Part shown: positions 9,476 through 30,447 of the stretch, one piece after another
Layout of the letters: each line of letters begins with the position of its first letter
Position numbering within the stretch: the stretch's first letter is position 1
Assembly: GCA_028135785.1 (NCBI GenBank)
Contig: JAOIHS010000002.1
Location: 6,222 to 70,221 of the forward strand
DNA: 64,000 nt
Reading direction: 5' to 3'
Source: SAR86 cluster bacterium
Lineage (GTDB): Bacteria > Pseudomonadota > Gammaproteobacteria > Magnimaribacterales > AG-339-G14
Notes under the pieces: generated by a model
What the model saw: only the letters and a program-made list of their open reading frames with translations
What the model was told of the DNA's origin: nothing
Database searches by the model: none
Translations under genes and position numbers: made by a program

Positions 9476-11368
9476 ATGAATTTTGAAATAATTGTAATCG
9501 GTGGGGGCCATGCTGGCACAGAAGCAGCTTACACGAGTAGCAGGTTTGGAAAAAAGACTTGTTTGGTAACGCAATCAAAAAAAGCTATTGGCCAAATGTC
9601 TTGTAATCCTGCGATAGGAGGGATAGGTAAAAGCCACTTAGTTAGAGAAATAGATGCAATGGGAGGGCTTATGGCGGATTGCGCTGATAAGGCGGGCATT
9701 CATTTTAGAGTCCTGAATTCTTCAAAGGGGCCAGCAGTTAGAGCAACTAGGTGCCAGGCAGATAGAGATTTATATAGTACTTCAGTTAAAGATATTATAA
9801 ATAGTGAGCACTTACTAACAGTTATCGAGAGCGAGGTTATAGGCTTAGATATATCTAACAATAAAGTTACGGGTGTTCAACTTAAGAACGGTGAAAAACT
9901 ATCTTCACTGAAAGTCATATTAACGGCAGGAACTTTTTTAAATGGCAAATTATTCACTGGAGATGAAGCCACAGAAGGAGGAAGGATTGGAGAAAAACCT
10001 TCAAAGAATTTAGCGGATTATTTGGCAGATCTTGAAATGGGTACCGGTAGATTAAAAACAGGAACGCCGCCAAGAATTTTATCGAAATCTGTAGATTGGG
10101 AGAAGACAATTGAGCAACGAGGGGATAACCCAAGACCAGCAATGTCTTTTCATAATTCTCCTGAAATTCATCCTAATCAGATTAGCTGTTTTTTAACAAG
10201 AACTAACGAAGAAACACACGAGCACATAAAAAAGGGGATAGATAAATCTCCAATGTTCTCTGGAAAAATAGAAGGAGTGGGCCCTCGTTATTGCCCTTCT
10301 ATAGAAGATAAAATTTATCGCTTTGCAGACAAGCTTTCTCATCAAATATTCATAGAACCAGAGGGCTTAAAATCAGAACTAATATATCCAAACGGAATAT
10401 CAACTAGCATGCCGGCTGTTATTCAGGATGCAATGGTTAGCTCTATAAAGGGTTTCGAGAATGCAAAAATAGCTCAGTATGGTTATGCCGTTGAATATGA
10501 CTTTTTTGACCCAAGAGGTTTGAAACACACCCTAGAAACAAAAAAAATAAAAGGTCTTTATTTTGCAGGTCAAATAAACGGAACCACAGGATATGAAGAG
10601 GCAGCAGCTCAAGGGTTAGCAGCTTCTATAAATGCATGTTTATCCATAGACGAGAAAGAACCATGGATATCTGGACGAGATAATAGTTATATCGGGGTAT
10701 TAATTGATGACTTAGTAACATTAGGGACAAAAGAACCTTATAGGATGTTCACCAGCAGAGCTGAGCATAGACTAATTTTGCGAGAAGATAATGCGGATCA
10801 AAGACTAACACCAGAGGCCAGAAAAATGGGATTGGTAAGCGATATTAATTGGAACAACTTCGAAAAAAAACTATTAATGATAGAAAAAGAAAAAAATAGG
10901 TTGAAAAGTATAAAAATAGACAGGAAGAGCTTACCGAACTCAGAAACAACTGCAAAAAACAAAACGGCAGAAAAAATATCAGCTTTAGAGGCCCTCAGAA
11001 GACCTGAGGTTAATTATCAGGAGCTTTGTCTTCAACTAGGAATAGAAGAGGCTGAAGAAAAAGTTTCTCTTGATGTCGTAACTCAAGAAAAATACTCTGG
11101 ATATATATCTAGACAGAATAAAGAAATCAAAAAAGTTCAAAAAAATGAGAACGCCTTAATACCGGAATCTATTATTTACAAAGAAATAAAAGGGCTTTCT
11201 AATGAGTCAAAACAAAAACTAACCCAAGTTAGGCCAAGAACATTAGCTCACGCCCAAAGAATTCCTGGAATGACTCCTGCAGCAATCTCTCTTTTATTGG
11301 TGCACTTGAAAAAAGCTTCTACCAGTAACAAAAAAAATGTTAATAAAGAAGCTCCTGAAAGAATCTAG
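9476..11368 (+). CDS. mnmG: tRNA uridine 5-carboxymethylaminomethyl modification enzyme MnmG (GidA)
   Basis: N-terminal FAD fold [23 protein letters not shown], 630 aa. Confidence 0.97.
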
Positions 11369-11939
11369 TCAAGAAATAGACCAAATCGTAGAAGACAAAC
11401 TAGAAAAATATCTAGTGCTCTTGTGCAAGTGGAACAAAACAAGAAACCTGGTTTCAAGAAATCTGAGCAGAGTAGAGTTAGCAAAACACATTTATGATTG
11501 TATTTGCTTAATGCCGCTTTTAGACGATAAACCCATAATAGATATAGGAACGGGTGCAGGTTTACCGGGAATCATAGTTAACATAATGGATGAGAATAAA
11601 AGTGTGACACTTATTGAGCCAAATAAAAAAAAGATCTCTTTCTTATTACACATTCAAGCAGACATGGGCTTAAAAAATTTGATAATAAAAGAAGAAAGGC
11701 TTGAGGACGCAGTATTTAACAGCGAAGGAACAATTGTAACCAGAGCATTTACTGAACCGAATAAATTCATACAATTATTAGAAAAAAAGAACATAAAAAA
11801 CAATAGAATAATAATGATGGTCTCTGAAGATATAAAAATCTTAAACCCAAACTGGCAGACTGTTTATACAACCTCAGAAGCCGAGCAAGTGTTAGAAAAA
11901 AAACGGGGTTTTTTGAATATTTCTCGTAACAAAAACTGA
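11337..11939 (+). CDS. rsmG: 16S rRNA (guanine527-N7)-methyltransferase RsmG (GidB)
   Basis: SAM motif [10 protein letters not shown]. Follows mnmG. The start is uncertain because the ORF overlaps the mnmG 3' end by 32 nt. Confidence 0.85.
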
Positions 11940-14557: not shown

Positions 14558-14791
<234 letters not shown>

Positions 14792-20090: not shown

Positions 20091-21437
20091 ATGAATGTAG
20101 ATATTATTATATTAGCAGCTGGTAAAGGTACCAGAATGCAATCTCCACTCCCCAAGGTTTTACAGACGCTTGGACATAAATCACTGCTTCAACACATAGT
20201 CGATACATGTGCTGATATCAAACAAAGCAAACTTCATATTATTGTTGGCGATCAAAAGGAATTAGTTAAAAAGGTTACTTCAGTACCAAAATCAACCAAT
20301 TGGGTAAATCAAAACAAACAACTTGGTACTGGACATGCGGTGAAGCAGGCTTTGAATCAGCTAAGACCGAATGCTTGTTGTTTAGTGCTTTACGCAGATG
20401 GCCCTTTAGTAACTGCAAATACTCTAAAAAAACTAATTAAGGCAGCTGATAAAGATAATTTAAGTTTGCTTACATTTGAGCCCACTATTTCAAAAGGGCT
20501 TGGAAGAATTATTCGGAATGATAAAAAACAAATTCAAAAAATTATAGAAGAAAAAGATGCCTCTTCTCAAGAAAAACTTATTAAAGAAGTTAATTCAGGA
20601 ATATTAGCCACATCAAGTAAAAACTTTAAAACTTGGCTTCCCAAAATAAAAAACAAGAACGCTTCTAAAGAATACCAATTGACTGACATCATTGCTTTTG
20701 CAGTTAACGATCAAAAGAAAATAAATGCTATTAACTTAGGCAACACAAATGAACTGCTAGCTGCAAATGATGCTTTAGAGCTGCATAACTTAGAAAAAAT
20801 ATATCACAAAAATATAGCTGAAAAGTTTGTTAAAAAAGGCGTAAGGTTTGCAGATATCAACCGAGTTGATTTTCGAGGTGAAGTTGAGATCAAATCGGGA
20901 ACTTTCGTCGATAACAACGTAATTTTTGAGGGGAACGCTCTAATTGGTAAAGACTGTAAAATTGGATCGGGAAGCATCATTAAAAATGCCACTTTAAAAG
21001 ACAATGTTGAAATAGAGCCTTTTACAATCATAGAAAATTCTAAAGTTGGAACCAACGCGAAGATAGGACCTTTTGCCCATGTTGGTCCAGGCACAACCTT
21101 GGAAGACGAAGCAGAAATTGGTAATTTTGTGGAAGTAAAAAGGAGCGTTATTGGAAAGAAAACCAAAGCCAAGCACTTAGCTTATATTGGCGACGGCATA
21201 TTAAGAGATCAAGTAAACGTCGGCGCTGGAACAATTTTTGTCAATTACGATGGTAAAAATAAAAACAAAACAATAGTAGGCACTAAGGCTTTTATCGGCT
21301 CCAATTCTTCTTTAGTAGCTCCTTTAAAAATAGGCAAGAATAGCATGATCGGCGCTGGCTCAGTTGTCACTAGCAATGTTCCGGAAAATAAATTGGCTTT
21401 AGGCAGAAGCAGACAAAAAAATATTAAAAGAAAATAA
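20091..21437 (+). CDS. glmU: Bifunctional GlcNAc-1-P uridyltransferase / GlcN-1-P acetyltransferase GlmU
   Basis: N-terminal LAAGKGTRM, C-terminal left-handed beta-helix hexapeptide repeats. Its stop overlaps the glmS start (TAATG). Confidence 0.95.
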   Translation: MNVDIIILAAGKGTRMQSPLPKVLQTLGHKSLLQHIVDTCADIKQSKLHIIVGDQKELVKKVTSVPKSTNWVNQNKQLGTGHAVKQALNQLRPNACCLVLYADGPLVTANTLKKLIKAADKDNLSLLTFEPTISKGLGRIIRNDKKQIQKIIEEKDASSQEKLIKEVNSGILATSSKNFKTWLPKIKNKNASKEYQLTDIIAFAVNDQKKINAINLGNTNELLAANDALELHNLEKIYHKNIAEKFVKKGVRFADINRVDFRGEVEIKSGTFVDNNVIFEGNALIGKDCKIGSGSIIKNATLKDNVEIEPFTIIENSKVGTNAKIGPFAHVGPGTTLEDEAEIGNFVEVKRSVIGKKTKAKHLAYIGDGILRDQVNVGAGTIFVNYDGKNKNKTIVGTKAFIGSNSSLVAPLKIGKNSMIGAGSVVTSNVPENKLALGRSRQKNIKRK

Positions 21438-23263
21438 TGTGTGGAATTATTGCAGCAGCAACCAATAGAAATGTAGGTAAGCTTTTGGTCCAAGGCCTTC
21501 ATAAAATGGAGTATCGAGGATATGACTCAGCAGGTATTGCCTTACACCAAGAAACCTCAATAGTGCATTTAAGATGTTTAGGAAAAGTAAGGCGCTTAGA
21601 AGAGAAAATGATTGAAGAAAAGCCTAAGGGTAAAGTTGGTATTGCTCATACCAGGTGGGCAACTCATGGCGAGCCCTCTGAAGTAAATGCTCATCCGCAT
21701 TCCTCTAAAGAGAGGGTTTATATCGTACACAATGGCATCATTGAAAACTACATTGAGCTGAAAAAAGAATTAATTGAATACGGATATGCTTTCAGTTCGC
21801 AAACAGATTCAGAACTAATCGCTCATTTACTGGATTATTTTCTAAATCAGAAAAACACCATGATTGATGCCATGCATTCGATTAAAGAAAAAATGCAGGG
21901 TGCTTATGCGATTGCTGCAATTGATCAAGAAGATAGCGATTCTTTTTATCTGGCTAGAAATAATTCACCTCTATTATTAGGAGTAGGTTCAGAAGAGTTA
22001 TTTGCAGCCTCAGATCCTTTGGCTATTTCAGACTTAACGGATAAATTTATTTTTCTTGAAGATGGTGATGTGGTTGAGGCCTCCAGCAAAGCTTATAAAA
22101 TTTACGATAAAAATAAAGAAGAGGTACAAAGAGAGTTAACGCATTTAAATATTTCTGCTCAAGCAACTTCAAAAGGTGAATATAAGCACTTCATGGAAAA
22201 AGAAATATTCGAACAACCTACTGCTATCTTAAATACTATCGATGGCAGAATTGGCGGTGAAGACGTCTTGGAAAATATTTTTGGGGAAGGTTCAAACGAA
22301 TTATTGGCTCAAGTAAAAAGAATTCAGGTTGTTGCTTGCGGTACTAGTTTGCATGCAGGGAGAGTAGCAGCAAATTGGTTTTCTTCTATTTCTCAAGTTC
22401 CTACACAAATAGATTACGCCAGTGAGTATCGATACAAAAACCCATATATTGATAAAAATACTTTGCTAGTGACGATTTCACAGTCAGGCGAAACCGCCGA
22501 TACTTTGAGCGCTTTAAGATACGCTAAGAGTCAAAATTATTTGGGGTCGCTTACTATCTGTAACGTTCCAACTAGTTCTATTGCGCGAGAGTCTGATTAT
22601 GTTTTGCTCACCAATGCTGGACCAGAAATAGGCGTAGCTTCAACTAAGGCCTTCACCACTCAATTAACTGCTTTGATGCTGTTGGCACTTTCTATTGCTA
22701 AAGCCAAAGATATAAATCCAAAACTTAGAACTAGACTGGCTACAGCCCTTAGAGCTTTACCAGAAATAGTATCTCAGTCTTTAGAATTGAGAGGTCAACT
22801 GATAGAGATAGCACCAAGTATCGCCAATAAAGACAATGCACTTTTTCTAGGTAGAGGAATGTTTTACCCAATTGCTAAAGAGGGTGCTTTAAAACTAAAA
22901 GAAATATCTTACATTCATGCGGAAGCCTATCCGGCTGGAGAATTGAAACATGGTCCTTTGGCTTTGATAGATGAGAACATGCCAGTCATCGCGCTAGCTC
23001 CCGAAAGTGACTTTGCTGAAAAATTAATTTCAAATTTAGAAGAAGTAAAAGCGAGGGGTGGAACTTTATATGTGTTTGGTAACGCTGCTGGAGATCTAAG
23101 TATTGATTCCGGGAAACTCATCAACATGCCGGAGTGTGATTTTTTGCTTACGCCAATTTTATACACTGTGCCCTTGCAAATTCTTTCTTACGAGGTTGCT
23201 TTGCTTAGAGGTACAGATATTGATCAACCAAGAAACTTGGCTAAGTCTGTGACGGTGGAGTAG
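21437..23263 (+). CDS. glmS: Glutamine--fructose-6-phosphate aminotransferase GlmS
   Basis: MCGI N-terminal nucleophile, two SIS domains (SQSGETADT), conserved C-terminus NLAKSVTVE-stop. Confidence 0.98.
   Translation: MCGIIAAATNRNVGKLLVQGLHKMEYRGYDSAGIALHQETSIVHLRCLGKVRRLEEKMIEEKPKGKVGIAHTRWATHGEPSEVNAHPHSSKERVYIVHNGIIENYIELKKELIEYGYAFSSQTDSELIAHLLDYFLNQKNTMIDAMHSIKEKMQGAYAIAAIDQEDSDSFYLARNNSPLLLGVGSEELFAASDPLAISDLTDKFIFLEDGDVVEASSKAYKIYDKNKEEVQRELTHLNISAQATSKGEYKHFMEKEIFEQPTAILNTIDGRIGGEDVLENIFGEGSNELLAQVKRIQVVACGTSLHAGRVAANWFSSISQVPTQIDYASEYRYKNPYIDKNTLLVTISQSGETADTLSALRYAKSQNYLGSLTICNVPTSSIARESDYVLLTNAGPEIGVASTKAFTTQLTALMLLALSIAKAKDINPKLRTRLATALRALPEIVSQSLELRGQLIEIAPSIANKDNALFLGRGMFYPIAKEGALKLKEISYIHAEAYPAGELKHGPLALIDENMPVIALAPESDFAEKLISNLEEVKARGGTLYVFGNAAGDLSIDSGKLINMPECDFLLTPILYTVPLQILSYEVALLRGTDIDQPRNLAKSVTVE
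23246..23263 (+). repeat. glmS-terminus copy 0 (resident, functional): TCT GTG ACG GTG GAG TAG = SVTVE-stop
   Basis: Last 18 nt of the glmS ORF. Serves as the reference for copies 1-5. Confidence 0.95.
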
Positions 23264-23274
23264 TTTCGAGTGAC
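23264..23274. repeat. Left arm of a perfect 11-bp inverted repeat (TTTCGAGTGAC) bounding unit 1
   Basis: Exact reverse complement of 24141-24151. Starts immediately after the glmS stop and contains the GTG start (23270) of the unit-1 ORF. Confidence 0.85.
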
Positions 23275-24097
23275 TATTAAAGAAGTAAAAAAATTAGTTA
23301 CTTCATACACTCAAACAAAGAATAAACTAAAAAAACTTGCCCCCACTTTTAATTGGGGAAATCTTCTTGCTGATTATGGTGAGTATGTTTGTATTCAACA
23401 TTATTCTTTGAAACAAGCACCAATTGGAACAAAAGGATTCGATGCAAAAACCAAGAGAAATAAAAGTGTGCAAATCAAGACTGTCAGGGACACTACTAGG
23501 AACATCAGATTCACAAAAGGAGCAGATTACTTGTTGGTTATTGAGGTAGACGAAGATGCTGAATGGAACGAAGTTTATTACGGAAATTTTGCCAAAATTA
23601 TCAAGGCATCTTCCATGACAAAAAATGGCAAATATACTATAGGGATAGAGAAACTTAAGAAAATTTCAAACAATACCTACAAACCAAAGGAAGATATTGA
23701 ATTAACACTCAAAACAGGCAGGAAAATAACTGCTGCCTCTAGAGAAGAACTACATAAAAAACTTACAAAAATGGGGCATAAGTTACCTCGAATAGAAACA
23801 ATTAATAGACGAATAAATGACTTTGATTGGCAATTAGAAAGAGCATTTCAAATAAAGGTTCCTCCCAATTATGCTGAAGTAGAAAATTTAGTAGAAAAAG
23901 AAGGTTATGAGTGGTTTCCTGAAACACCAACTCAAGATAACAGCAGACAACCCTTTGTTTCAGATTTTGAAAAGAGAGTATATATTTCCCAAAAATACTT
24001 TTGCAAAGAGCATGGATTAAAAGAATGGTATGTTAGTGAAAAAAAAGAACTGGGTTGGGATTCAGCAAGGATAATTATGAGTTTTAGGCAGTCATAA
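23270..24097 (+). CDS. Hypothetical protein: N-terminal Mrr-like PD-(D/E)xK nuclease core fused to two C-terminal HTH-like modules of the kind seen in free-standing homing endonucleases
   Basis: 275 aa. Has E38 (GEY), D58 (KGFDA) and Q68-I-K70 (SVQIKT), followed by hydrophobic strand YLLVIEVDED, i.e. a D..QxK signature as in Mrr-cat nucleases. C-terminal half has RIETINRRINDFDWQLERAF and LKEWYVSEKKELGWDSARII (x-I-x-R-R-I..[GD]W..E-x-A type). The GGTGGAG of the glmS end serves as a Shine-Dalgarno-like element 7 nt upstream of the GTG start. Motif-level call only. Confidence 0.5.
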   Translation: MTIKEVKKLVTSYTQTKNKLKKLAPTFNWGNLLADYGEYVCIQHYSLKQAPIGTKGFDAKTKRNKSVQIKTVRDTTRNIRFTKGADYLLVIEVDEDAEWNEVYYGNFAKIIKASSMTKNGKYTIGIEKLKKISNNTYKPKEDIELTLKTGRKITAASREELHKKLTKMGHKLPRIETINRRINDFDWQLERAFQIKVPPNYAEVENLVEKEGYEWFPETPTQDNSRQPFVSDFEKRVYISQKYFCKEHGLKEWYVSEKKELGWDSARIIMSFRQS

Positions 24098-24140
24098 AAA
24101 ATGACTTATAAGTATAATAAAAAGTTAAATGTCTTTATTC

Positions 24141-24151
24141 GTCACTCGAAA
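24141..24151. repeat. Right arm of the perfect 11-bp inverted repeat (GTCACTCGAAA) bounding unit 1
   Basis: Exact reverse complement of 23264-23274. Ends 4 nt before glmS-terminus copy 1. Confidence 0.85.
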
Positions 24152-24155
24152 ACAG

Positions 24156-24173
24156 TCAGTGACAGTGGAGTAA
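24156..24173 (+). repeat. glmS-terminus copy 1: TCA GTG ACA GTG GAG TAA = SVTVE-stop
   Basis: 15/18 identical to copy 0. All 3 differences fall at codon third positions (stop TAG to TAA). A terminator-like hairpin follows. Confidence 0.85.
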
Positions 24174-24217
24174 ATCAACCTCAACTTTCGTTTTAATCCC
24201 GCATTCTGCGGTTGTTT
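24167..24217. repeat. Left arm of an approximately 50-nt imperfect inverted repeat flanking the R-M unit
   Basis: The reverse complement AAACAACCGCAGAATGCGGGATTAAAACGAAAGTTGAGGTTGATTTACTCC aligns with 25989-26036. The distal 25 nt match 22/25, and the AAAC(A)ACCGCAGAA block is shared apart from a 1-nt indel. The middle has small indels. Confidence 0.75.
24199..24217 (+). terminator. Possible intrinsic terminator (CCGCA-TTC-TGCGG followed by TTGTTT), candidate ancestral glmS terminator
   Basis: 5-bp GC-rich stem with a 3-nt loop and a T-rich tail, 26 nt after the stop codon of copy 1. The stem is short. Confidence 0.4.
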
Positions 24218-24339
24218 CGTAAATTAATAAAAAGAATTCCCGGTAAAAATTACCTTAAAAATTTCACCTATTTTTTCGTGTTAGCGGAAGTCATAAGGGG
24301 TTTATAAGAACGATTGCGATCTCTTATGAGTATTAATAA

Positions 24340-24378
24340 GGCAATTGCCTGGAAATTTCAATAATCACAAGTTATAAT
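24340..24378 (+). promoter_or_regulatory. Candidate promoter/operator of the methyltransferase gene
   Basis: 10-bp palindrome GGCAATTGCC (24340-24349) abuts a -35-like TGGAAA (24350-24355). A 17-nt spacer leads to a perfect -10 TATAAT (24373-24378), only 7 nt before the ATG at 24386. No Shine-Dalgarno is present, which suggests a leaderless mRNA. Confidence 0.35.
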
Positions 24379-24385
24379 TAAATCG

Positions 24386-25135
24386 ATGAAATTAAACAAA
24401 ATTTATGAAGAAGATTGCCTTTCAACATTAAAAAAGATGAAAGATGATTCAGTTGATGTTGTTATAACCTCTCCCCCATACAACATGAATCTAAGGATTA
24501 GAAATGGGAAATACTGCTCAAGACAAATCGTTAAAGAAATAAGTACAAAATATACTGAATTCAGCGATAACCTACCAATCGATGAATACAATGAATTTCA
24601 CACAAATGTATTAAAGGAACTCCTAAGAGTATCAAATCTAATTTTCTATAATATTCAAATTGTTACTGGTAGCAAAAGATCAATTTTTAAAATGATAGGT
24701 GAGTTTTCTGAGAATCTAAAAGAGATAATTGTATGGGATAAGGGAAATGGTCAACCAGCAATGCAACAACAAGTTCTTAATAGAAGAACTGAGTTAATAC
24801 TTGTTTTTGAGAAGGACTATCCGATAAGCAGGCAATTTAGAAAGAGAGGAGAATTTAAAAGAGGAACACTTGATGATTTGTGGTTGATAAAAAGAGGAAA
24901 AAAAGTCGGAGGAGAGAATCACGGAGCAGTTTTTCCTGAAGAACTCGTATCAACCATACTTGAAAACTTTTCTAAAGAAGATGACATCATCTATGATCCT
25001 TTTATGGGTACTGGAACAACCGCAGTTGTTGCTAAGCAATTAAATAGAAAATTCATTGGAAGCGAAATAAGTCAACGGTATATAGAAATAGCAGAAGAAA
25101 GACTTAAAAAGACAAATGATCTTTTAAGTAAATAG
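24386..25135 (+). CDS. Type II DNA methyltransferase, beta-class, predicted N4-cytosine specific
   Basis: Motif IV SPPY at residues 29-32 (DVVITSPPYN) lies N-terminal to motif I (DPFMGTGTT), giving the beta-class circular permutation. SPPY rather than DPPY favours N4mC. Adjacent to an MvaI/BcnI-like nuclease. Confidence 0.85.
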   Translation: MKLNKIYEEDCLSTLKKMKDDSVDVVITSPPYNMNLRIRNGKYCSRQIVKEISTKYTEFSDNLPIDEYNEFHTNVLKELLRVSNLIFYNIQIVTGSKRSIFKMIGEFSENLKEIIVWDKGNGQPAMQQQVLNRRTELILVFEKDYPISRQFRKRGEFKRGTLDDLWLIKRGKKVGGENHGAVFPEELVSTILENFSKEDDIIYDPFMGTGTTAVVAKQLNRKFIGSEISQRYIEIAEERLKKTNDLLSK

Positions 25136-25171
25136 ATAGTTTTAGAGAATCATTTATGTCATATTTCTTAT

Positions 25172-25924
25172 ATGGCAGACATAGAAAAAGCAAAACGAGA
25201 ATTTCAAAGAATCAAATCGCTTGGTTATGTCTTAAGCGATAAACCCTTTGCAAAAAAGAATGACGGAGCAATTGGCAATACTTTTGAAACTTTGCTTGGC
25301 GTTGAAGAGAACAACCTAAGAGATGCAGATTTTGAAGGTTGGGAATGCAAAAGTCAGCGCAAACACACCAATTCCGCTTCTAGTTTATTTACAAGGAAAC
25401 CAGACTATCCTCATGGAGGTGATGAATACATGAGGGAGAATTGGGGTATAAAAGATACTGAGTTCCCAAATTTAAAGGTATTTAGAACCTCAATTTATTA
25501 TCATAGGTGGTCGATGGTGTATAACAAATACAAAATGAGATTAAGGATAAATGAACCCAATGAAAGACTTGAAATAATCCTCTGTGATCTTGATGAAAAT
25601 ATTATTGATGAAAGTGTTTATTGGTCATTTAAATCACTAAAAGAAGCAAGTTCAAAACTTAAGAACACATTCGTTGTAAAAGCAGAAGAAAAAACCATTA
25701 ATGAAAAAGTATATTTTAAATATATAGAAGGAACAGTCTATATGAATTTTAATTTTGGTAATCTAATTAAATTAATAAAAGATGGCAAAGCAAGATATGA
25801 CAATAGACTTGGAGTATATCGCACAGGAGACAAGAGAGGAAAAAAACATAATCATGGGGGTGGGATAAGACTAGTTAGTTCAGACTCTTACAAAGATCTC
25901 TTCGATGATTATGAAAGTTTATAG
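25172..25924 (+). CDS. Type II restriction endonuclease, MvaI/BcnI-like
   Basis: 250 aa. The block GYV..(x)..DGAIGNTFETLLGVEENNLRDADFEGWECKS (D..ExK core ECK at 58-60) and the C-terminal HNHGGGIRL..YKDLF resemble, from memory, the BcnI/MvaI family. Lies 36 nt downstream of the methyltransferase. Confidence 0.7.
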   Translation: MADIEKAKREFQRIKSLGYVLSDKPFAKKNDGAIGNTFETLLGVEENNLRDADFEGWECKSQRKHTNSASSLFTRKPDYPHGGDEYMRENWGIKDTEFPNLKVFRTSIYYHRWSMVYNKYKMRLRINEPNERLEIILCDLDENIIDESVYWSFKSLKEASSKLKNTFVVKAEEKTINEKVYFKYIEGTVYMNFNFGNLIKLIKDGKARYDNRLGVYRTGDKRGKKHNHGGGIRLVSSDSYKDLFDDYESL

Positions 25925-25988
25925 TTTTGTATCTAAGGAATATAAAGTAACTTATGAGTAATTTATGCAACCAAACCCCAATACTTTC

Positions 25989-26036
25989 AAACACCGCAGA
26001 AATAGCGGAGAATGAAAGTCGAGGTTCACTTACTCC
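25989..26036. repeat. Right arm of the approximately 50-nt imperfect inverted repeat flanking the R-M unit
   Basis: AAACACCGCAGAAATAGCGGAGAATGAAAGTCGAGGTTCACTTACTCC is an inverted copy of the segment formed by GGAGTAA plus the hairpin region at 24167-24217. Its terminal TTACTCC pairs with the GGAGTAA of copy 2 (7-bp stem, 8-nt loop). Confidence 0.75.
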
Positions 26037-26051
26037 GTTACCGTGGAGTAA
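26034..26051 (+). repeat. glmS-terminus copy 2: TCC GTT ACC GTG GAG TAA = SVTVE-stop
   Basis: 14/18 identical to copy 0. All 4 differences are at third codon positions. Confidence 0.85.
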
Positions 26052-26243
26052 TCAAAGGGGGTGTAGTTTTAGAGTTCACATTAGAGACTTAATCGAACAA
26101 CCTCACCTATCACCAACCCTATTCCAAGAGACAACAAATAATCTTTAACCTTATTGAATGTCTTCATGAAGATAAGGGTTGCGATTTCTATTTATTCTGA
26201 GATTATAGAAAATTAAATTAAACTCATTTTGTAGGGAAAGATT

Positions 26244-26624
26244 ATGATAAAAAAAGAATCTATTTTTTTAGTATTTGTTGCTATTGGTGTATTTTCTGCT
26301 TCTTTGGGATATGGTTTTGTACCAAGCCTAACAATGCCTTTTTTGTATGAAATAGAAATAACCAATACAAATTTATTAAATATTTTAAGAGCAATTTCGG
26401 GTTTATATATAGCCTTAGTAACCTTTTGGATAATAGGTGCATATAACTCTAATCTTCAATTACCTGCTCTATGGAGTTTAACAATCTTCATGACTGGGAT
26501 AGCTTTAGGAAGAGTTGCAAGCATCTTAATTGATGGTTTGCCCAGTCCAATCTTTATTTTTTATCTATTTATAGAAATTATTTCCGGCTTAATAGGTTAC
26601 GCACTTTTGAAGGGGAAATTATGA
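26244..26624 (+). CDS. Small four-TM membrane protein (DUF4345-like)
   Basis: 126 aa, four hydrophobic segments, GRVASILIDGLPSP motif. The family assignment is tentative. Confidence 0.6.
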   Translation: MIKKESIFLVFVAIGVFSASLGYGFVPSLTMPFLYEIEITNTNLLNILRAISGLYIALVTFWIIGAYNSNLQLPALWSLTIFMTGIALGRVASILIDGLPSPIFIFYLFIEIISGLIGYALLKGKL

Positions 26625-26818
26625 AGTTTCTATTAAGCGTGATCGCACTATGCACTTTAATGATTAAAGCCCAACAGAGAATATTAGTTTTAGAAAAGGA
26701 ACTAATCCACAAAAAAAAGAGCAGTAAAGTCATTGGAATTACTAGAAAACCCCCCAATACGAATCATAAACAACTCCGTAACGGTGGAGTAGATTTGGTT
26801 GTACCGGTTTTAAAATAA
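26621..26818 (+). CDS. Small hypothetical protein (65 aa), translationally coupled to the upstream gene
   Basis: ATGA start/stop overlap with 26244-26624. Hydrophobic N-terminus and basic C-terminus. Its 3' end reads through glmS-terminus copy 3 in a different frame. Confidence 0.4.
   Translation: MKFLLSVIALCTLMIKAQQRILVLEKELIHKKKSSKVIGITRKPPNTNHKQLRNGGVDLVVPVLK
26775..26792 (+). repeat. glmS-terminus copy 3: TCC GTA ACG GTG GAG TAG = SVTVE-stop
   Basis: 16/18 identical to copy 0. Both differences are at third codon positions. Confidence 0.85.
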
Positions 26819-26828
26819 GGAGAAAGAT

Positions 26829-26993
26829 ATGAGATTTAGTATTTCAACAATTATAGGAATTTTCCTAGGTGTATCTACATTTATGTTTTATGTCTCCAAT
26901 GTCAGACCAGTGGGTTGGTTTGATTCACTGGTAGGTATGATTTTAGGGGTAATAGTATTTGTGGTAGTTAAGAGATTTAAAGGTTTTAAGTGA
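26829..26993 (+). CDS. Unlisted small membrane protein (54 aa, two TM segments)
   Basis: ATG at 26829 is preceded by AAGGAG (26817-26822, 6-nt spacer). Translation is MRFSISTIIGIFLGVSTFMFYVSNVRPVGWFDSLVGMILGVIVFVVVKRFKGFK. Too short for the ORF track. It is the only ORF in the interval between copies 3 and 4. Confidence 0.55.
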   Translation: MRFSISTIIGIFLGVSTFMFYVSNVRPVGWFDSLVGMILGVIVFVVVKRFKGFK

Positions 26994-27018
26994 AAACAAC
27001 TGTTACAAACAATTCAAC

Positions 27019-27036
27019 TCGGTCACTGTTGAGTAG
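27019..27036 (+). repeat. glmS-terminus copy 4: TCG GTC ACT GTT GAG TAG = SVTVE-stop
   Basis: 14/18 identical to copy 0. All 4 differences are at third codon positions. Lies 7 nt upstream of the msrAB-fusion ATG. Confidence 0.85.
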
Positions 27037-27043
27037 AAATATA

Positions 27044-28330
27044 ATGAAGGTTTTGTCGCTTTTATTGATCTCTTTTTTTAGTATTTTTGCATCAGCTGCG
27101 ATCACCGAAGCAACGATTCACTCTGAGAAAATTATTCTTGGCTCTGGTTGTTTTTGGGGTGCTGAAAAAGGTTATGAATCTCTGCCCGGAGTGATAGATG
27201 CAGTATCGGGTTATGCTGATGGCGATGGGGTGCGACCAACCTACAGAGAGATCACAAAGCCAAAAAATAAATTCAACCCAAACAATCATGCTGAAGTGGT
27301 GGAGGTTACTTATAACAAAAATATTATTTCTACAGAGGGCATTCTCATCCATTACCTAGAATCACATGATCCAACTCAAGTGAATAGACAGGGCAATGAT
27401 ATTGGAACCCAATATAGATCCATAATTCTTTATTCAAACGAAGATCAAAGATTAGCGATTTTGAATACGATTTCTATCTATCAGGCGCTGCTTAAAGATG
27501 CTGGATACGGCAAGATAGCAACTGAAGTAAAGCCAATCCAAGAGTTTTATAAAGCCGAAAAATACCATCAAGACTACATTAAAAAAAATCCAAATGGGTA
27601 TTGTCCAGATCACTCCACAGGAGTGACTTTTAATGAGGTTAAAAAAGGCATTTCAGATCTTAAACCATTTGCTGACCCAGCTTTTGACAATAGTCTTTTA
27701 TTAAAAGGAAAACATATTTTGGTAATAGTTTCAGATGGGTATTGTCCATATTGTGAAAAATTTAAAAAAGATATTACTAGTGAATACAAAGGAACGATTC
27801 CGCTCACCAACAGAACAGCCAGCCAGCTCAATGACTTAAAAATAAAAACACCAAAATGGGCCACACCAACAATTATTTTTATTCAAGACGGAACAGAGGT
27901 ATTTGGTCATCAAGGGTACATGACACCCAAAGAATTTTATAAGGCTCTTGGTAAATTCAAATTGGGTAATTCAGAAGCATATAAGGTAGCTTTTGCAGAT
28001 GGAACTGACGCAAGGTTCTGTAAAGAATACGAAATCTTTAAAAATACTCCTGATGGAGTTTTTATAGACAAGCTTAGTGGAGCGGCGTTATTCGATACAA
28101 AAGATCGATTTAATTCTTCCACAGGCTGGCTATCATTCACAAAGCCAGTATACGATTCTGTTTATACCAAACCTGATAATAGCTATGGGATGAGAAGAAC
28201 AGAAATAAGATCTATAACTTCTGACATTCACCTAGGCCATGTATTTGCTGATGGGCCAAATGGGATGCCAAGGTATTGTATAAACGCCACAGTGTTAGAA
28301 TTTATTAAACGAGCAGATATCAAAATCTAA
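27044..28330 (+). CDS. msrAB: Secreted tri-domain methionine sulfoxide reductase: MsrA - thioredoxin-fold (CPYC) - MsrB
   Basis: Signal peptide MKVLSLLLISFFSIFASAA. MsrA motif GSGCFWG. Middle Trx-fold with CPYC and cis-Pro TPT. C-terminal MsrB motifs GWLSF, HLGHVFADGP, RYCIN. Start moved to the ATG at 27044, because the track start at 26990 would read through copy 4. Confidence 0.85.
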   Translation: MKVLSLLLISFFSIFASAAITEATIHSEKIILGSGCFWGAEKGYESLPGVIDAVSGYADGDGVRPTYREITKPKNKFNPNNHAEVVEVTYNKNIISTEGILIHYLESHDPTQVNRQGNDIGTQYRSIILYSNEDQRLAILNTISIYQALLKDAGYGKIATEVKPIQEFYKAEKYHQDYIKKNPNGYCPDHSTGVTFNEVKKGISDLKPFADPAFDNSLLLKGKHILVIVSDGYCPYCEKFKKDITSEYKGTIPLTNRTASQLNDLKIKTPKWATPTIIFIQDGTEVFGHQGYMTPKEFYKALGKFKLGNSEAYKVAFADGTDARFCKEYEIFKNTPDGVFIDKLSGAALFDTKDRFNSSTGWLSFTKPVYDSVYTKPDNSYGMRRTEIRSITSDIHLGHVFADGPNGMPRYCINATVLEFIKRADIKI

Positions 28331-28388
28331 TAATATCTATCACAGTAGCCTAGTCTATAACCGTTACAGGATAAGAACCCTTTTTAGT

Positions 28389-28745
28389 TTAATTCAAATT
28401 ATATTTGATAATAAACTTAAGATCGCCCTGAGGAGATTCAAAATTGGTTGGCTGAAAAGTATTTGATACATCATCTAAATTACTTGTTTCGAAATTAAAT
28501 TCGAACCTGTTAGGTTTTTCTGAGCTTTGACTAATCAATTCACTAGTTTCTTCTTCTTCCTCAGTATCTCTAGTCAAGAAATATATCAATCCACCAACAA
28601 GTAACAACCCAGCTATAGCGCCTCCGCTTCCGCCTCCGCCATATCCTCCTCCGCCTGAGCTACTTCCACCTCCTCCTCCTCCATAAGCTTGGGTAAAACC
28701 AAGTGGAGCCATGACAAGCATGGTAACAAATAATAATATTTTCAT
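28389..28745 (-). CDS. Secreted/anchored glycine-rich low-complexity protein
   Basis: Signal peptide, a run GGGGGGSSSGGGGYGGGGSGG, one TM (AIAGLLLVGGLIYFL), then an acidic EEEEE tract. The only minus-strand gene in the array. Confidence 0.5.
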   Translation of the reverse strand: MKILLFVTMLVMAPLGFTQAYGGGGGGSSSGGGGYGGGGSGGAIAGLLLVGGLIYFLTRDTEEEEETSELISQSSEKPNRFEFNFETSNLDDVSNTFQPTNFESPQGDLKFIIKYNLN

Positions 28746-28961
28746 ATCTTCCTCTAATAATTTTATTAAAAAAATGTTGAGTGTCTAAAAGTTTTAAATT
28801 TTTAGTTAAAATAAAAAATTAAAGCTGAAGCAAGGCAACATCTTTAGTCTATGCTTAATTTTTTTAAATTCAATGCTTTCTAAAAGAGGTTATAAGCTAA
28901 AAGATATTAATGAACTCTATTTATTTAATCTTCAATCTCATCCAGTTTAGGCTTTAACTAA

Positions 28962-28976
28962 GTAACTGTTGAGTAG
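28962..28976 (+). repeat. glmS-terminus copy 5 (15 nt): GTA ACT GTT GAG TAG = VTVE-stop
   Basis: Ser codon lost, with an in-frame TAA directly upstream. All 3 differences from copy 0 are at third positions. Shares the 14-mer ACTGTTGAGTAGAA with copy 4. Confidence 0.7.
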
Positions 28977-29003
28977 AATCGCAAGTAAGGCTTAAAATAA
29001 GTA

Positions 29004-29390
29004 ATGAAACTAATAATCATAGCCTTATCAATATTTTTATCCTTTAATGCTTTTTCAGAAAAAGTTTATTTTATTAATCTTGAAGATGGAGATGTCTTAA
29101 AATCTCCTTTCCTCATCCAATTCGGTTTGTCGGGCAAGGGCGTTGCTCCTGCTGGAGTTGATATAGATAACACAGGTCATCACCATTTACTCATAAATGT
29201 CGATGAAATAAATTACTCTCTACCTATTCCTTCAACAAATCAGCATCTCCACTTTGGCTTAGGACAAACTGAAACTAATCTCGATCTGCCTCCAGGCAAA
29301 CACAAACTCCAATTGGTACTAGGTAATAAATACCATGTGCCTCTTCAACCATTACTAATCTCAAAGAAAATTGAAGTTGTCATAGAGTAA
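29004..29390 (+). CDS. Periplasmic DUF4399-like protein
   Basis: Signal peptide and the GHHHLLI motif typical of DUF4399. Confidence 0.6.
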   Translation: MKLIIIALSIFLSFNAFSEKVYFINLEDGDVLKSPFLIQFGLSGKGVAPAGVDIDNTGHHHLLINVDEINYSLPIPSTNQHLHFGLGQTETNLDLPPGKHKLQLVLGNKYHVPLQPLLISKKIEVVIE

Positions 29391-29502
29391 CTTTGAGCAA
29401 AGAAACCAAATAGTAAAACTTATTAATCAATAAAGAAGCAATGTTAATATCGTCCAAGAAAACGGAATAATAATAAAATCTATATTAATAAGTACTGGGA
29501 GA

Positions 29503-29859
29503 GTGCTACTAGCAATTTATTTTCTAGCACCAGGCATCGGAAAATTTGTATCATGGGATACGTCTCTTGCATTAATGGAAACCCATAACATTATCATGGC
29601 TCCGATTTTACTAGCCATCGCCGGTATTGCTCAAATTGGAGGAAGTATTTGTCTTTTATTTAATAAGAAGGTGGTTTTGTGCGCACTTGGCTTTGCTGCA
29701 ATGGTTTTGCTCATTAACTTAAATTTGCATGATTTTTGGAATGTTTATGAGGGGGTTGACGCTAAGCATGAGTCGCAAAATTTCTTTAAAAATTTGGGAA
29801 TATTAGCCGGCCTCTTACTGCTGGCAGCAGTCAACCTGGAAAAAGAGATTAATAAGTAG
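29503..29859 (+). CDS. DoxX-family membrane protein
   Basis: 118 aa, 4 TM, N-terminal LLAIYFLAPGIGKF. GTG start. A 10-bp AT-rich hairpin (29849-29879) spans the stop codon. Confidence 0.6.
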   Translation: MLLAIYFLAPGIGKFVSWDTSLALMETHNIIMAPILLAIAGIAQIGGSICLLFNKKVVLCALGFAAMVLLINLNLHDFWNVYEGVDAKHESQNFFKNLGILAGLLLLAAVNLEKEINK

Positions 29860-29919
29860 TCACACCATTTACTTATTAAGTTAATATTAAAATCAGTTAA
29901 ATAATCTAGGAAGGTAACA

Positions 29920-30447
29920 GTGAATCAGTTTAAAAATTTAATCGTACTCAGTCCGTTAATTTACGCCATTCATCATTTTGAAGAGCACATAATATTTAAT
30001 TTTATAGAATGGAAACTAAAATACTTTTCTCATTCAGCTGCAGCATTATCGACGGAAGCAATTTTGTCTATATTGGTCTGTATATTTGTAATATTTACTC
30101 TTCTACATTTAGTTAAAAACAATAGGGCCAGCGCATACGTTATTTTGTACATATTATTTACCATTCAAGTCATCAACGCATTTTTTCACATATTTTTCAG
30201 CCTTTACTACAGTGACTTTAGTCCCGGCACGATTACGTCAGTCTTGCTTTACTTGCCCGTTAGCTTTTTCATTGTCCGCACAGCATTCAAAGAGGGTTGG
30301 TTAAAAACTTATTCGGAATACGCGGTAATTGCTTTTTTAGGAACAATAACCTTCGTTTTATTTGAAATATATGGGCCAATAGTTATAGTTTTATCGGTGA
30401 TAGCTAGTCTTGGCTATTATGTTTGGGCTAACAAAAAATTAACTTAA
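29920..30447 (+). CDS. HXXEE-domain membrane protein
   Basis: IHHFEEH motif near the N-terminus, multi-TM. Confidence 0.6.
   Translation: MNQFKNLIVLSPLIYAIHHFEEHIIFNFIEWKLKYFSHSAAALSTEAILSILVCIFVIFTLLHLVKNNRASAYVILYILFTIQVINAFFHIFFSLYYSDFSPGTITSVLLYLPVSFFIVRTAFKEGWLKTYSEYAVIAFLGTITFVLFEIYGPIVIVLSVIASLGYYVWANKKLT

Follow-up and report, generated by a model that had tools for sequence, protein, structure and literature searches.

A single-gene cassette at the 3' end of glmS in a SAR86 bacterium, one of five in a tandem array probably built by site-specific recombination

In a 64-kb stretch of DNA from a SAR86 cluster bacterium (contig JAOIHS010000002.1; the whole stretch that was analysed is called the window below), the glmS gene is followed directly by a small unit that carries a single gene and is bounded by inverted repeats. 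The genes atpC and glmU lie upstream of glmS, and the TAG stop codon of glmS occupies 23261-23263. GlmS depends on its C-terminal tail for function, and the transposon Tn7 makes use of the same conserved DNA. SAR86 is among the most abundant bacterial groups of the ocean surface; its genomes are very small and its acquisition of flexible genes is poorly understood. The features around the glmS end are listed here. The unit is called cassette 1, and a core is a stretch that encodes the GlmS C-terminus with its stop codon.

21437-23263, plus strand: glmS, 608 aa, ending AAG TCT GTG ACG GTG GAG TAG (from the list of open reading frames, ORFs).
23243-23263, plus strand: core 0, the working glmS end (K SVTVE stop), with the exchange AC placed at 23252-23253.
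23254-24163, plus strand: cassette 1 as a recombination unit, 910 bp, from the crossover map of 18 within-family pairs and contig L101.
23264-23283, plus strand: left arm (P'-type) of cassette 1, with the exact 11 nt at 23264-23274; it holds the GTG start codon.
23270-24097, plus strand: cargo ORF, 275 aa, with an N-terminal DUF6998 / PD-(D/E)xK-like nuclease domain and a conserved C-terminal domain.
24132-24151, plus strand: right arm (P-type) of cassette 1, with the exact 11 nt at 24141-24151.
24153-24173, plus strand: core 1, CAG TCA GTG ACA GTG GAG TAA (Q SVTVE stop), with AC at 24162-24163.

The first-pass annotation of this DNA had described the unit as bounded by an 11-bp inverted repeat, and this description holds in its details. 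TTTCGAGTGAC (23264-23274) and GTCACTCGAAA (24141-24151) are exact reverse complements. The left arm does begin on the first base after the glmS TAG, and it contains the GTG start, at 23270, of the only long ORF between the arms. The right arm does end 4 nt before the next copy of the glmS terminus, and TCA GTG ACA GTG GAG TAA follows these 4 nt. The repeat is longer than 11 bp, as 20 nt at each end (23264-23283 and 24132-24151) are complementary at 18 of 20 positions. An exact inverted partner within 2 kb is found for only 0.33% of the 11-mers in the window, and the chance that the partner would also abut the next copy of the glmS end is approximately 1e-5. An origin of the 11-bp inverted repeat by chance is excluded.

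The copy of the glmS terminus beside the unit is present as had been reported, but it is not a lone copy. A search of the 64-kb window with a codon-degenerate pattern for VTVE and a stop codon returned 6 strings, the glmS end and five copies, all of them on the plus strand between 23249 and 28976 and none elsewhere. We estimate that approximately 0.05 matches to this degenerate pattern would be expected per window by chance. The unit, which had been regarded as a solitary minimal element, is instead cassette 1 of five in an array that spans 23254-28966 and is of a type common in SAR86. Each cassette ends in a copy of SVTVE and a stop codon spelled with different synonymous codons, and the codon before Ser, which encodes Lys in the glmS end, does not encode Lys in the copies. 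The rest of the array is as follows.

24164-26041, plus strand: cassette 2, a restriction-modification pair, 1878 bp, with arms at 24174-24190 and 26013-26029.
26031-26051, plus strand: core 2, TAC TCC GTT ACC GTG GAG TAA, with AC at 26040-26041.
26042-26782, plus strand: cassette 3, 741 bp, with a DUF4345 membrane protein (Pfam) at 26244-26624.
26772-26792, plus strand: core 3, AAC TCC GTA ACG GTG GAG TAG, with AC at 26781-26782; self-palindromic (ACTCC...GGAGT).
26783-27026, plus strand: cassette 4, 244 bp, with a 54-aa ORF at 26829-26993.
27016-27036, plus strand: core 4, AAC TCG GTC ACT GTT GAG TAG.
27027-28966, plus strand: cassette 5, an old distal block shared with locus L001, with msrA-thioredoxin-msrB and a Gly-rich ORF.
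28389-28745, minus strand: the Gly-rich ORF in cassette 5.
28956-28976, plus strand: core 5, decayed, AAC TAA GTA ACT GTT GAG TAG, the distal end of the array; its L001 counterpart is at 14621-14641.

Where in the glmS end are the cassettes joined? The boundary of the unit had been placed at the base after the stop codon. At the left junction of 18 within-family pairs of cassettes, only 4-5 of 18 are identical up to the Val wobble position, and then 12, 9, 17 and 18 of 18 are identical from the Thr wobble position onwards. The right junction has the mirror pattern, with 17 and 13 identical pairs followed by 6, 7 and 8. Identity flips between the Val and Thr wobbles, and the switch therefore lies at the invariant AC of the Thr codon. 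By these sequence comparisons the exchange point is the AC, 10 nt inside glmS and not after the stop codon, which moves the boundaries of cassette 1 to 23252-23253 and 24162-24163. A homologous cassette of the P0007 type has two different right-hand neighbours in L092 and L089 with divergence directly after AC, and the recombinase-bearing contigs L191, L192 and L194 likewise diverge directly after AC. A 2-bp staggered cut at a non-palindromic dinucleotide in the centre would account for the switch between the two wobbles, but such a cleavage is itself invisible in sequence. Since exchange takes place at AC, the last 10 nt of today's glmS (G GTG GAG TAG), including the stop codon and GGAG, would have come with cassette 1. 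It had been suggested that the ORF borrows GGTGGAG of glmS as a ribosome-binding site, but this motif travels with the cassette and so is the cassette's own.

Between its two exchange points, cassette 1 opens with the right half-core G GTG GAG TAG and closes with the left half-core CAG TCA GTG AC; inside these lie, in order, the left arm, the ORF and the right arm. Counted outward from AC, its two half-sites match at 18 of 20 positions at positions 11-30 and at 3 of 10 at positions 1-10. Serine integrase sites are dyads of approximately 40-50 bp around a central dinucleotide, and cassette 1 has the corresponding attP-like feature of large serine recombinases, an imperfect dyad of approximately 50 bp centred on the crossover. 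A 940-nt contig from another sample, L101, contains cassette 1 with 1 mismatch behind a different cassette end, AATGAAAGTTCTTATAAACT TAG TCC GTT. Its identity to the window starts exactly at 23252 and the contig ends at 24162; L101 holds a near-identical cassette 1 at an internal array position. The homologous cassette P0007, with an ORF of 63% identity, has the arms GTTGGAACAGTG and CACTGTTCCAAC, and the GTG start again lies within the left arm. P0007 keeps the geometry with a different repeat sequence; therefore the repeat is functional and not fortuitous.

The glmS C-terminus as a query retrieved SAR86 genomes, and 80 related glmS loci were obtained. The closest relative is L001, with flanks approximately 91% identical to the window. 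In L001 the glmS stop codon is followed after approximately 165 nt by msrAB, and cassettes 1-4 are absent. Homology between the window and L001 stops at 23264 and restarts at 27056, covering 27056-28334. The first-pass annotation had proposed comparison with relatives that lack the unit and a search for its ends around homologous ORFs. L001 does break off at 23264, but it lacks cassettes 1-4 jointly, and an allele that lacks cassette 1 alone, that is an exact empty site, was not found among the relatives. Distant homologues of the ORF do lack the ends, whereas the SAR86-type P0007 has the same geometry with its different repeat. The unit is missing from L001 and present in another context in L101. 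The earlier view that it is mobile, was inserted with precision and encodes no recombinase is borne out, and its terminal inverted repeats are functional. The best reading is that cassette 1 is the newest of the five cassettes stacked behind glmS.

Similar arrays are widespread in the group. Approximately 30 loci of the SAR86 type have 2-9 copies of the glmS end after glmS, all in the same orientation; non-SAR86 gammaproteobacteria have one. There are 84 distinct cassettes with a median length of 665 bp, many of them 170-700 bp long with tightly matched arms, and in cassettes filled by a single ORF the ORF is co-oriented with glmS in 54 of 61 cases. The arms were compared in 87 cassettes by pairing the 32 nt after the stop codon with the 32 nt before the next copy. 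A pairing score of at least 10, the threshold used, was reached by 44% of pairs from the same cassette, 4% of pairs between cassettes, 9% across a junction and 1% of interior windows. Per-position dyad symmetry at positions 11-27 from AC is 0.55-0.72, versus 0.30-0.44 across cassettes (100 cassettes). The arm sequences themselves vary by cassette, for example TTCACAACAGTGAATAA, TTTCGTTTGCAGAAT and ACAGGTGGGGTTT, around a loose consensus rTTTrAAyrGwGAwTT. Nine families of cassettes were each seen in more than one array, beside different neighbours. The array type looks like an undescribed gene-capture system. No description of glmS-end cassette arrays was found in the literature; most subscription journals were outside the coverage of the search, so novelty is unproven.

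Some arrays begin with a larger element that carries a recombinase. The array of L024 starts with a 6.0-kb cassette, the last gene of which encodes a 551-aa large serine recombinase with the domains Resolvase (6e-24), Recombinase (1e-11) and Zn_ribbon_recom (3e-4). The catalytic motifs are conserved, and a profile of the clade of this protein matches the integrases of TP901-1, SPbeta and phiC31. Homologues at 72%, 65% and 51% identity are all encoded in the first array element behind glmS, and in each of them the recombinase stop codon is 25-43 nt from the half-core tac/tat/tag TCC GTT AC. The combination of Resolvase, Recombinase and zinc-ribbon domains was found in the elements of L024, L095 and L098, and neither in cassette 1 nor in the window. 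Among metagenomic homologues with 33-85% identity, a core lies at most 146 nt from the recombinase stop codon in 29 of 33, and in a further 2 of the 33 the nearest core overlaps the predicted stop. The homologues at 33-35% identity sit behind glmS genes that are only 47-58% identical to that of the window. As distant homologues are also located at glmS ends, targeting of this site is a property of the whole recombinase clade.

The recombinase elements, 6-9 kb long, are found at the site used by the cassettes and have ends like theirs. When the ends of a recombinase element are joined, the dyad symmetry runs into the core (TTACTCC mirrors GGAGTAA), and this explains why the spelling TAC TCC GTT recurs in the copies. 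At the recombinase-element sites 23-28 of 45 positions are dyad-matched. Junctions of the attP type, in which a P arm, a core and the matching P' arm are adjacent, are present in the metagenomic contigs L194, L201, L196 and L185. A P arm that matches a sampled recombinase-element arm at 13/18 or more was found in 19% of the small cassettes, versus 0.2% for shuffled arms, and between the arms of cassette 2 and that of the L204 recombinase element 15/20 positions agree. The recombinase-bearing elements of L024 (11009-11470), L095 (3049-3579) and L098 (5863-6324) all have a small gene whose product is weakly similar to REP_ORF2-G2P replication proteins. Its sequence hints that an excised recombinase element may replicate as a small plasmid or phage-like circle. 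Among viral contigs a single-protein scan found no relative of the recombinase and a profile scan found only remote ones, with 21-28% identity; these scans gave no evidence that the recombinase elements are phages.

We consider it probable that the unit is a non-autonomous gene cassette and that site-specific recombination at the glmS 3' end assembled its tandem array, most likely by a serine recombinase acting in trans. As a circle, a cassette would carry a single site of approximately 60 bp, dyad-symmetric and of the attP type, in which the central AC would be flanked by the left half-core (NAN TCN GTN) and then the right arm on one side, and by the right half-core (N GTN GAR TAR) and then the left arm on the other. 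When this site recombines with the Thr-codon AC of the glmS end, the cassette would be inserted, and the last four glmS codons and the stop codon would be rebuilt from cassette DNA. This would explain why SVTVE and the stop codon are kept in all copies with different synonymous codons. The prior glmS end would be displaced downstream, and the newest cassette would adjoin glmS. The enzyme would most likely be a large serine recombinase supplied in trans by the 6-9 kb elements. Cassette 1 and the whole window encode no recombinase, and cassette 1 can therefore only be the non-autonomous partner; that it was moved in trans is the best reading. The cargo ORF is probably expressed by read-through from glmS, via GGAG in its own half-core. 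For cassette 1 the predicted circle junction is GTCACTCGAAAACAGTCAGTG-AC-GGTGGAGTAGTTTCGAGTGAC, and its excision would leave the empty junction ...AAGTCTGTG-AC-AGTGGAGTAAATCAACCTCAAC. What is read from the sequences is the array with its arms, the exchange point and the association of the recombinase clade with its site. Action in trans on cassette 1, a staggered cut at the AC dinucleotide and a circular intermediate are steps that we infer.

Several observations weigh against this mechanism. The arm sequences differ widely among cassettes, which is awkward for one sequence-specific recombinase; several specificities or loose recognition would therefore be needed. Among the sampled recombinase elements none has an arm that matches those of cassette 1; the best agreement is 10-11/20, and only the inner ACTGACTGTTTTCG is common to the element of L209. 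No recombinase gene was detected by tblastn in the 64-kb window, nor was one found in 85 of 86 other loci, most of which are glmS loci; with the recombinase absent from the window and nearly all loci, we can therefore only infer its action in trans. Canonical large serine integrases recombine only attP with attB or, given a directionality factor, attL with attR. The internal junctions of the arrays are hybrids of P and P', and the target of later insertions is a hybrid of B and P'. The crossover can be placed no more finely than between two wobbles, that is on the invariant AC and its borders, and the contigs with attP-type junctions could be tandem copies and not circles. Some of the differences between left neighbours can be explained by later insertions upstream, with the cassette itself unmoved.

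If the cassettes are real but are moved by another enzyme, the candidates would be tyrosine recombinases and single-strand-specific enzymes that recognize the stem formed by the arms, in the manner of integron integrases and folded attC sites, and the serine elements would merely share the hotspot. The arm sequences vary while their complementarity is kept, which is a signature of structure recognition, and approximately 80% of the small cassettes, cassette 1 included, match no sampled recombinase-element arm. However, no gene for a tyrosine recombinase or HUH-type enzyme was present among the cassette ORFs scanned, which are a subset, and no Rfam family was matched. The arms lie at opposite cassette ends with the exchange midway, which is the layout of a double-stranded dyad and not of attC, and the serine elements share the core, the arm geometry and the position of AC. 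We regard a different enzyme as rather unlikely.

The small cassettes might also not be individually mobile. Full elements would then have been inserted repeatedly at glmS, internal deletions would have left only the cargo, and the variation among arrays would have arisen by homologous recombination between flanks. Several cassette families do share ends of approximately 45 nt with recombinase elements while carrying different cargo, and recombinase elements are always first in the array. Against this, the same small cassette occurs with different right and left neighbours and the switch falls exactly at AC. Many cassettes of 170-700 bp have matched arms unrelated to any recombinase-element arm, and a new matched arm pair for each cassette is not something that deletion can create. 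Such an origin is improbable.

The gene of cassette 1 also bears on how the unit moves. Its product matches Pfam DUF6998 with E = 9e-22 and 77.9 bits versus a cut-off of 27, and the PADLOC mREase_II models for methyl-directed type II restriction enzymes with E = 7e-8. In the AlphaFold2 model, with a predicted local distance difference test (pLDDT) score of 86.8, the top Foldseek matches are NhoI and the N-domain of Eco15I, both methyl-dependent enzymes (E = 5e-6, probability 1.00). A sequence search of solved structures with the ORF gave nothing meaningful. Residues D58, Q68-x-K70 and D86 are invariant in 22 homologues. The family match, the PD-(D/E)xK-type fold and the conserved residues place the protein among DUF6998 / methyl-directed endonuclease-like proteins, and the best reading of sequence and model is that the ORF is cargo, a predicted methyl-directed restriction-endonuclease-like defence nuclease. 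Distant homologues from Thioglobus and Planktomarina are encoded in islands that also bear an integrase and have no glmS core near them. In bacteria other than SAR86, DUF6998 was seen in islands with a DUF6538 and Phage_integrase gene (L081 7652-9566, L084 568-5906). In Thioglobus a DUF4379 (zinc-ribbon) gene directly follows the DUF6998 gene, and the two genes may form a module.

The first-pass annotation had proposed a self-contained minimal element whose own nuclease cuts uninterrupted glmS ends and which is copied in the manner of a homing endonuclease gene. The cargo ORF does encode a protein with a nuclease fold, and the unit is located exactly at a highly conserved sequence. Its nearest structural relatives, however, are the methyl-dependent restriction enzymes, and its homologues in L081-L086 are located away from glmS and without a core. 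Unrelated cargo at the same site, namely a restriction-modification pair, membrane proteins and tiny ORFs, has the same architecture, and repair-based homing would not duplicate the target in different synonymous codons. Homing is highly improbable, and the nuclease is better viewed as a passenger. A coincidental inverted repeat beside a glmS-end copy made by slippage is effectively refuted: AT-rich DNA is rich in short repeats, with 550 inverted pairs in 11.5 kb, but the positional chance is as low as given above and the same geometry is found in dozens of cassettes and in a homologous cassette of different sequence.

The other members of the array vary in content and age. In cassette 2 a methyltransferase (24386-25135; Pfam N6_N4_Mtase, E = 2e-40) is followed by an endonuclease of the MvaI/BcnI family (25172-25924; Pfam MvaI_BcnI, E = 1e-44). 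Together with the nuclease of cassette 1, this restriction-modification pair makes the glmS-proximal array look like a miniature defence island. A hairpin at 24199-24211 had been interpreted as the displaced ancestral terminator of glmS. It instead sits in the conserved left end of cassette 2, whose family is present at many array positions, and no hairpin of this kind is present 3' of glmS in L001. The arms of cassette 3 are mismatched (arm score 6), and its right arm matches a cassette of L002 (15529-15978); the left-arm side of the cassette corresponds to 26052-26243 of the window. Cassette 3 may be a composite of two fused cassettes that has lost its internal core. The right half of core 4, ACT GTT GAG TAG, is identical to the glmS end of L001. 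The fused msrA-thioredoxin-msrB gene of cassette 5 has a probable start at 27044 and ends at 28330 (Pfam PMSR, SelR and Thioredoxin_2). This block has an upstream core and a decayed downstream core both in the window (27016-28976) and in L001 (10583-14641), and it looks like an ancient cassette that has been fixed in the lineage.

Cores that read TAC/AAC TCC GTN ACN GTG GAG TA can form a hairpin (ACTCC...GGAGT), an example in the window being 26773-26790. The synonymous codons of the half-core mirror the GAG-TAR end of glmS, and the 'silent' positions would therefore be constrained by the recombination site. A scan of 21000-30000 against Rfam with E up to 1 gave no match. Scans for promoters and terminators were uninformative, with 23 promoter-like sites versus 24.5 expected and 9 terminator-like sites versus 3.3 expected; several of the latter are the cores.

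A short cassette array is present behind glmS (10589-11650) in HIMB1674, a cultured SAR86 isolate with a complete genome (CP151794.1, locus L038). With a cultured strain that bears an array, experiments are possible. A 4.4-kb insertion after glmS was seen in a non-SAR86 gammaproteobacterium (L076, 10505-14990). On both sides of it stands a directly repeated gene end, here much longer, with more than 40 nt that include upstream codons. This element has no obvious recombinase and looks like another kind of glmS-end insertion.

What could such arrays mean for SAR86? It is possible, and we propose it tentatively, that in SAR86 and perhaps other marine lineages an integron-like capture platform evolved independently of integrons. 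The glmS stop region would serve as the dock and a dedicated clade of large serine recombinases as the engine, and a circulating pool of mini-cassettes, with private dyad sites that encode the GlmS end, would supply defence and niche genes. The glmS cassette array would then be a concrete and testable route of gene flow, with dozens of shuffled mini-cassettes that include restriction systems. If this is true, integron-style capture can run on a serine recombinase and a protein-coding target, and the recombination site must also code for the end of an essential enzyme. As the target of the recombinase clade, the glmS end also used by Tn7, is conserved bacteria-wide, the clade may interest those who build tools for genome integration.

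Elements of the staphylococcal cassette chromosome (SCC) are the first point of comparison. SCC elements are inserted by large serine recombinases within the final codons of a conserved housekeeping gene, the end of which is restored and is then present twice, as a direct repeat. Inverted repeats are present at the element ends, and elements without a recombinase stack in tandem with autonomous ones. The glmS system works like SCCmec and pseudo-SCC elements of staphylococci (CcrAB/CcrC), and the best NCBIfam matches of the SAR86 recombinase are the CcrB, XisF and CcrA models. It does not belong to SCC as defined by a Ccr equivalog and the target rlmH, as its CcrB match is 80.8 bits versus a cut-off of 900 and its target is glmS. 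Unlike SCC elements, the glmS cassettes are tiny (the median given above), often consist of a single ORF co-oriented with the target and in many cases have private arms, and the hosts of the arrays are streamlined marine Gammaproteobacteria.

The architecture of Resolvase, Recombinase and zinc ribbon is shared with the large serine integrases of phages and integrative and conjugative elements (phiC31, Bxb1, A118, TP901-1, SPbeta SprA), as is an attP of approximately 50-60 bp with a dyad, around what would be a non-palindromic central dinucleotide. Unlike the elements of these integrases, the glmS elements are small, at 6-9 kb, and have a Rep-like gene; phage structural genes were not seen in them, and a large population of miniature non-autonomous partners exists alongside. 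As for Tn7 and Tn7-like transposons at attTn7, the conservation of the glmS 3' end is exploited as a safe chromosomal landing site. Tn7 inserts approximately 23 bp past the end of glmS and duplicates 5 bp of its target, and it has ends that bind TnsB and is targeted by TnsD. In contrast, the junction of the glmS cassettes falls within the Thr codon, with 10 nt left to the end of the stop codon, and 18-21 nt of the gene end are duplicated. No transposase-like ORF and no Tn7 genes or ends are present, and the position of the junction together with the absence of Tns genes rules out insertion of the Tn7 type.

Tycheposons and additive flexible genomic islands are also found in abundant streamlined ocean bacteria, where tandem elements with cargo are located by a conserved gene with partial target copies as boundaries. 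They use tyrosine recombinases and tRNA or transfer-messenger RNA genes, and their units are kilobases long. The glmS system differs in its use of a protein-coding gene end, a serine recombinase and units of integron size.

Like integrons, the glmS arrays are tandem and of one orientation, with small, mostly single-ORF and recombinase-less cassettes behind a fixed site and the newest nearest to that site. The recombination sites vary in sequence in both systems and their palindromic character is kept. The arrays do not belong to integrons as defined by an attC palindrome wholly at the 3' end of the cassette, with exchange at its edge, and by an IntI tyrosine recombinase with attI. Unlike in integrons, the arms are located at opposite ends of the cassette and the exchange falls in the middle of the dyad. 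An essential gene provides the fixed site with its coding end, and the associated enzyme is a serine recombinase; no Phage_integrase domain was present in the ORFs scanned around the array and no IntI was seen. There is a fair chance that the glmS array is an independent, integron-like capture system.

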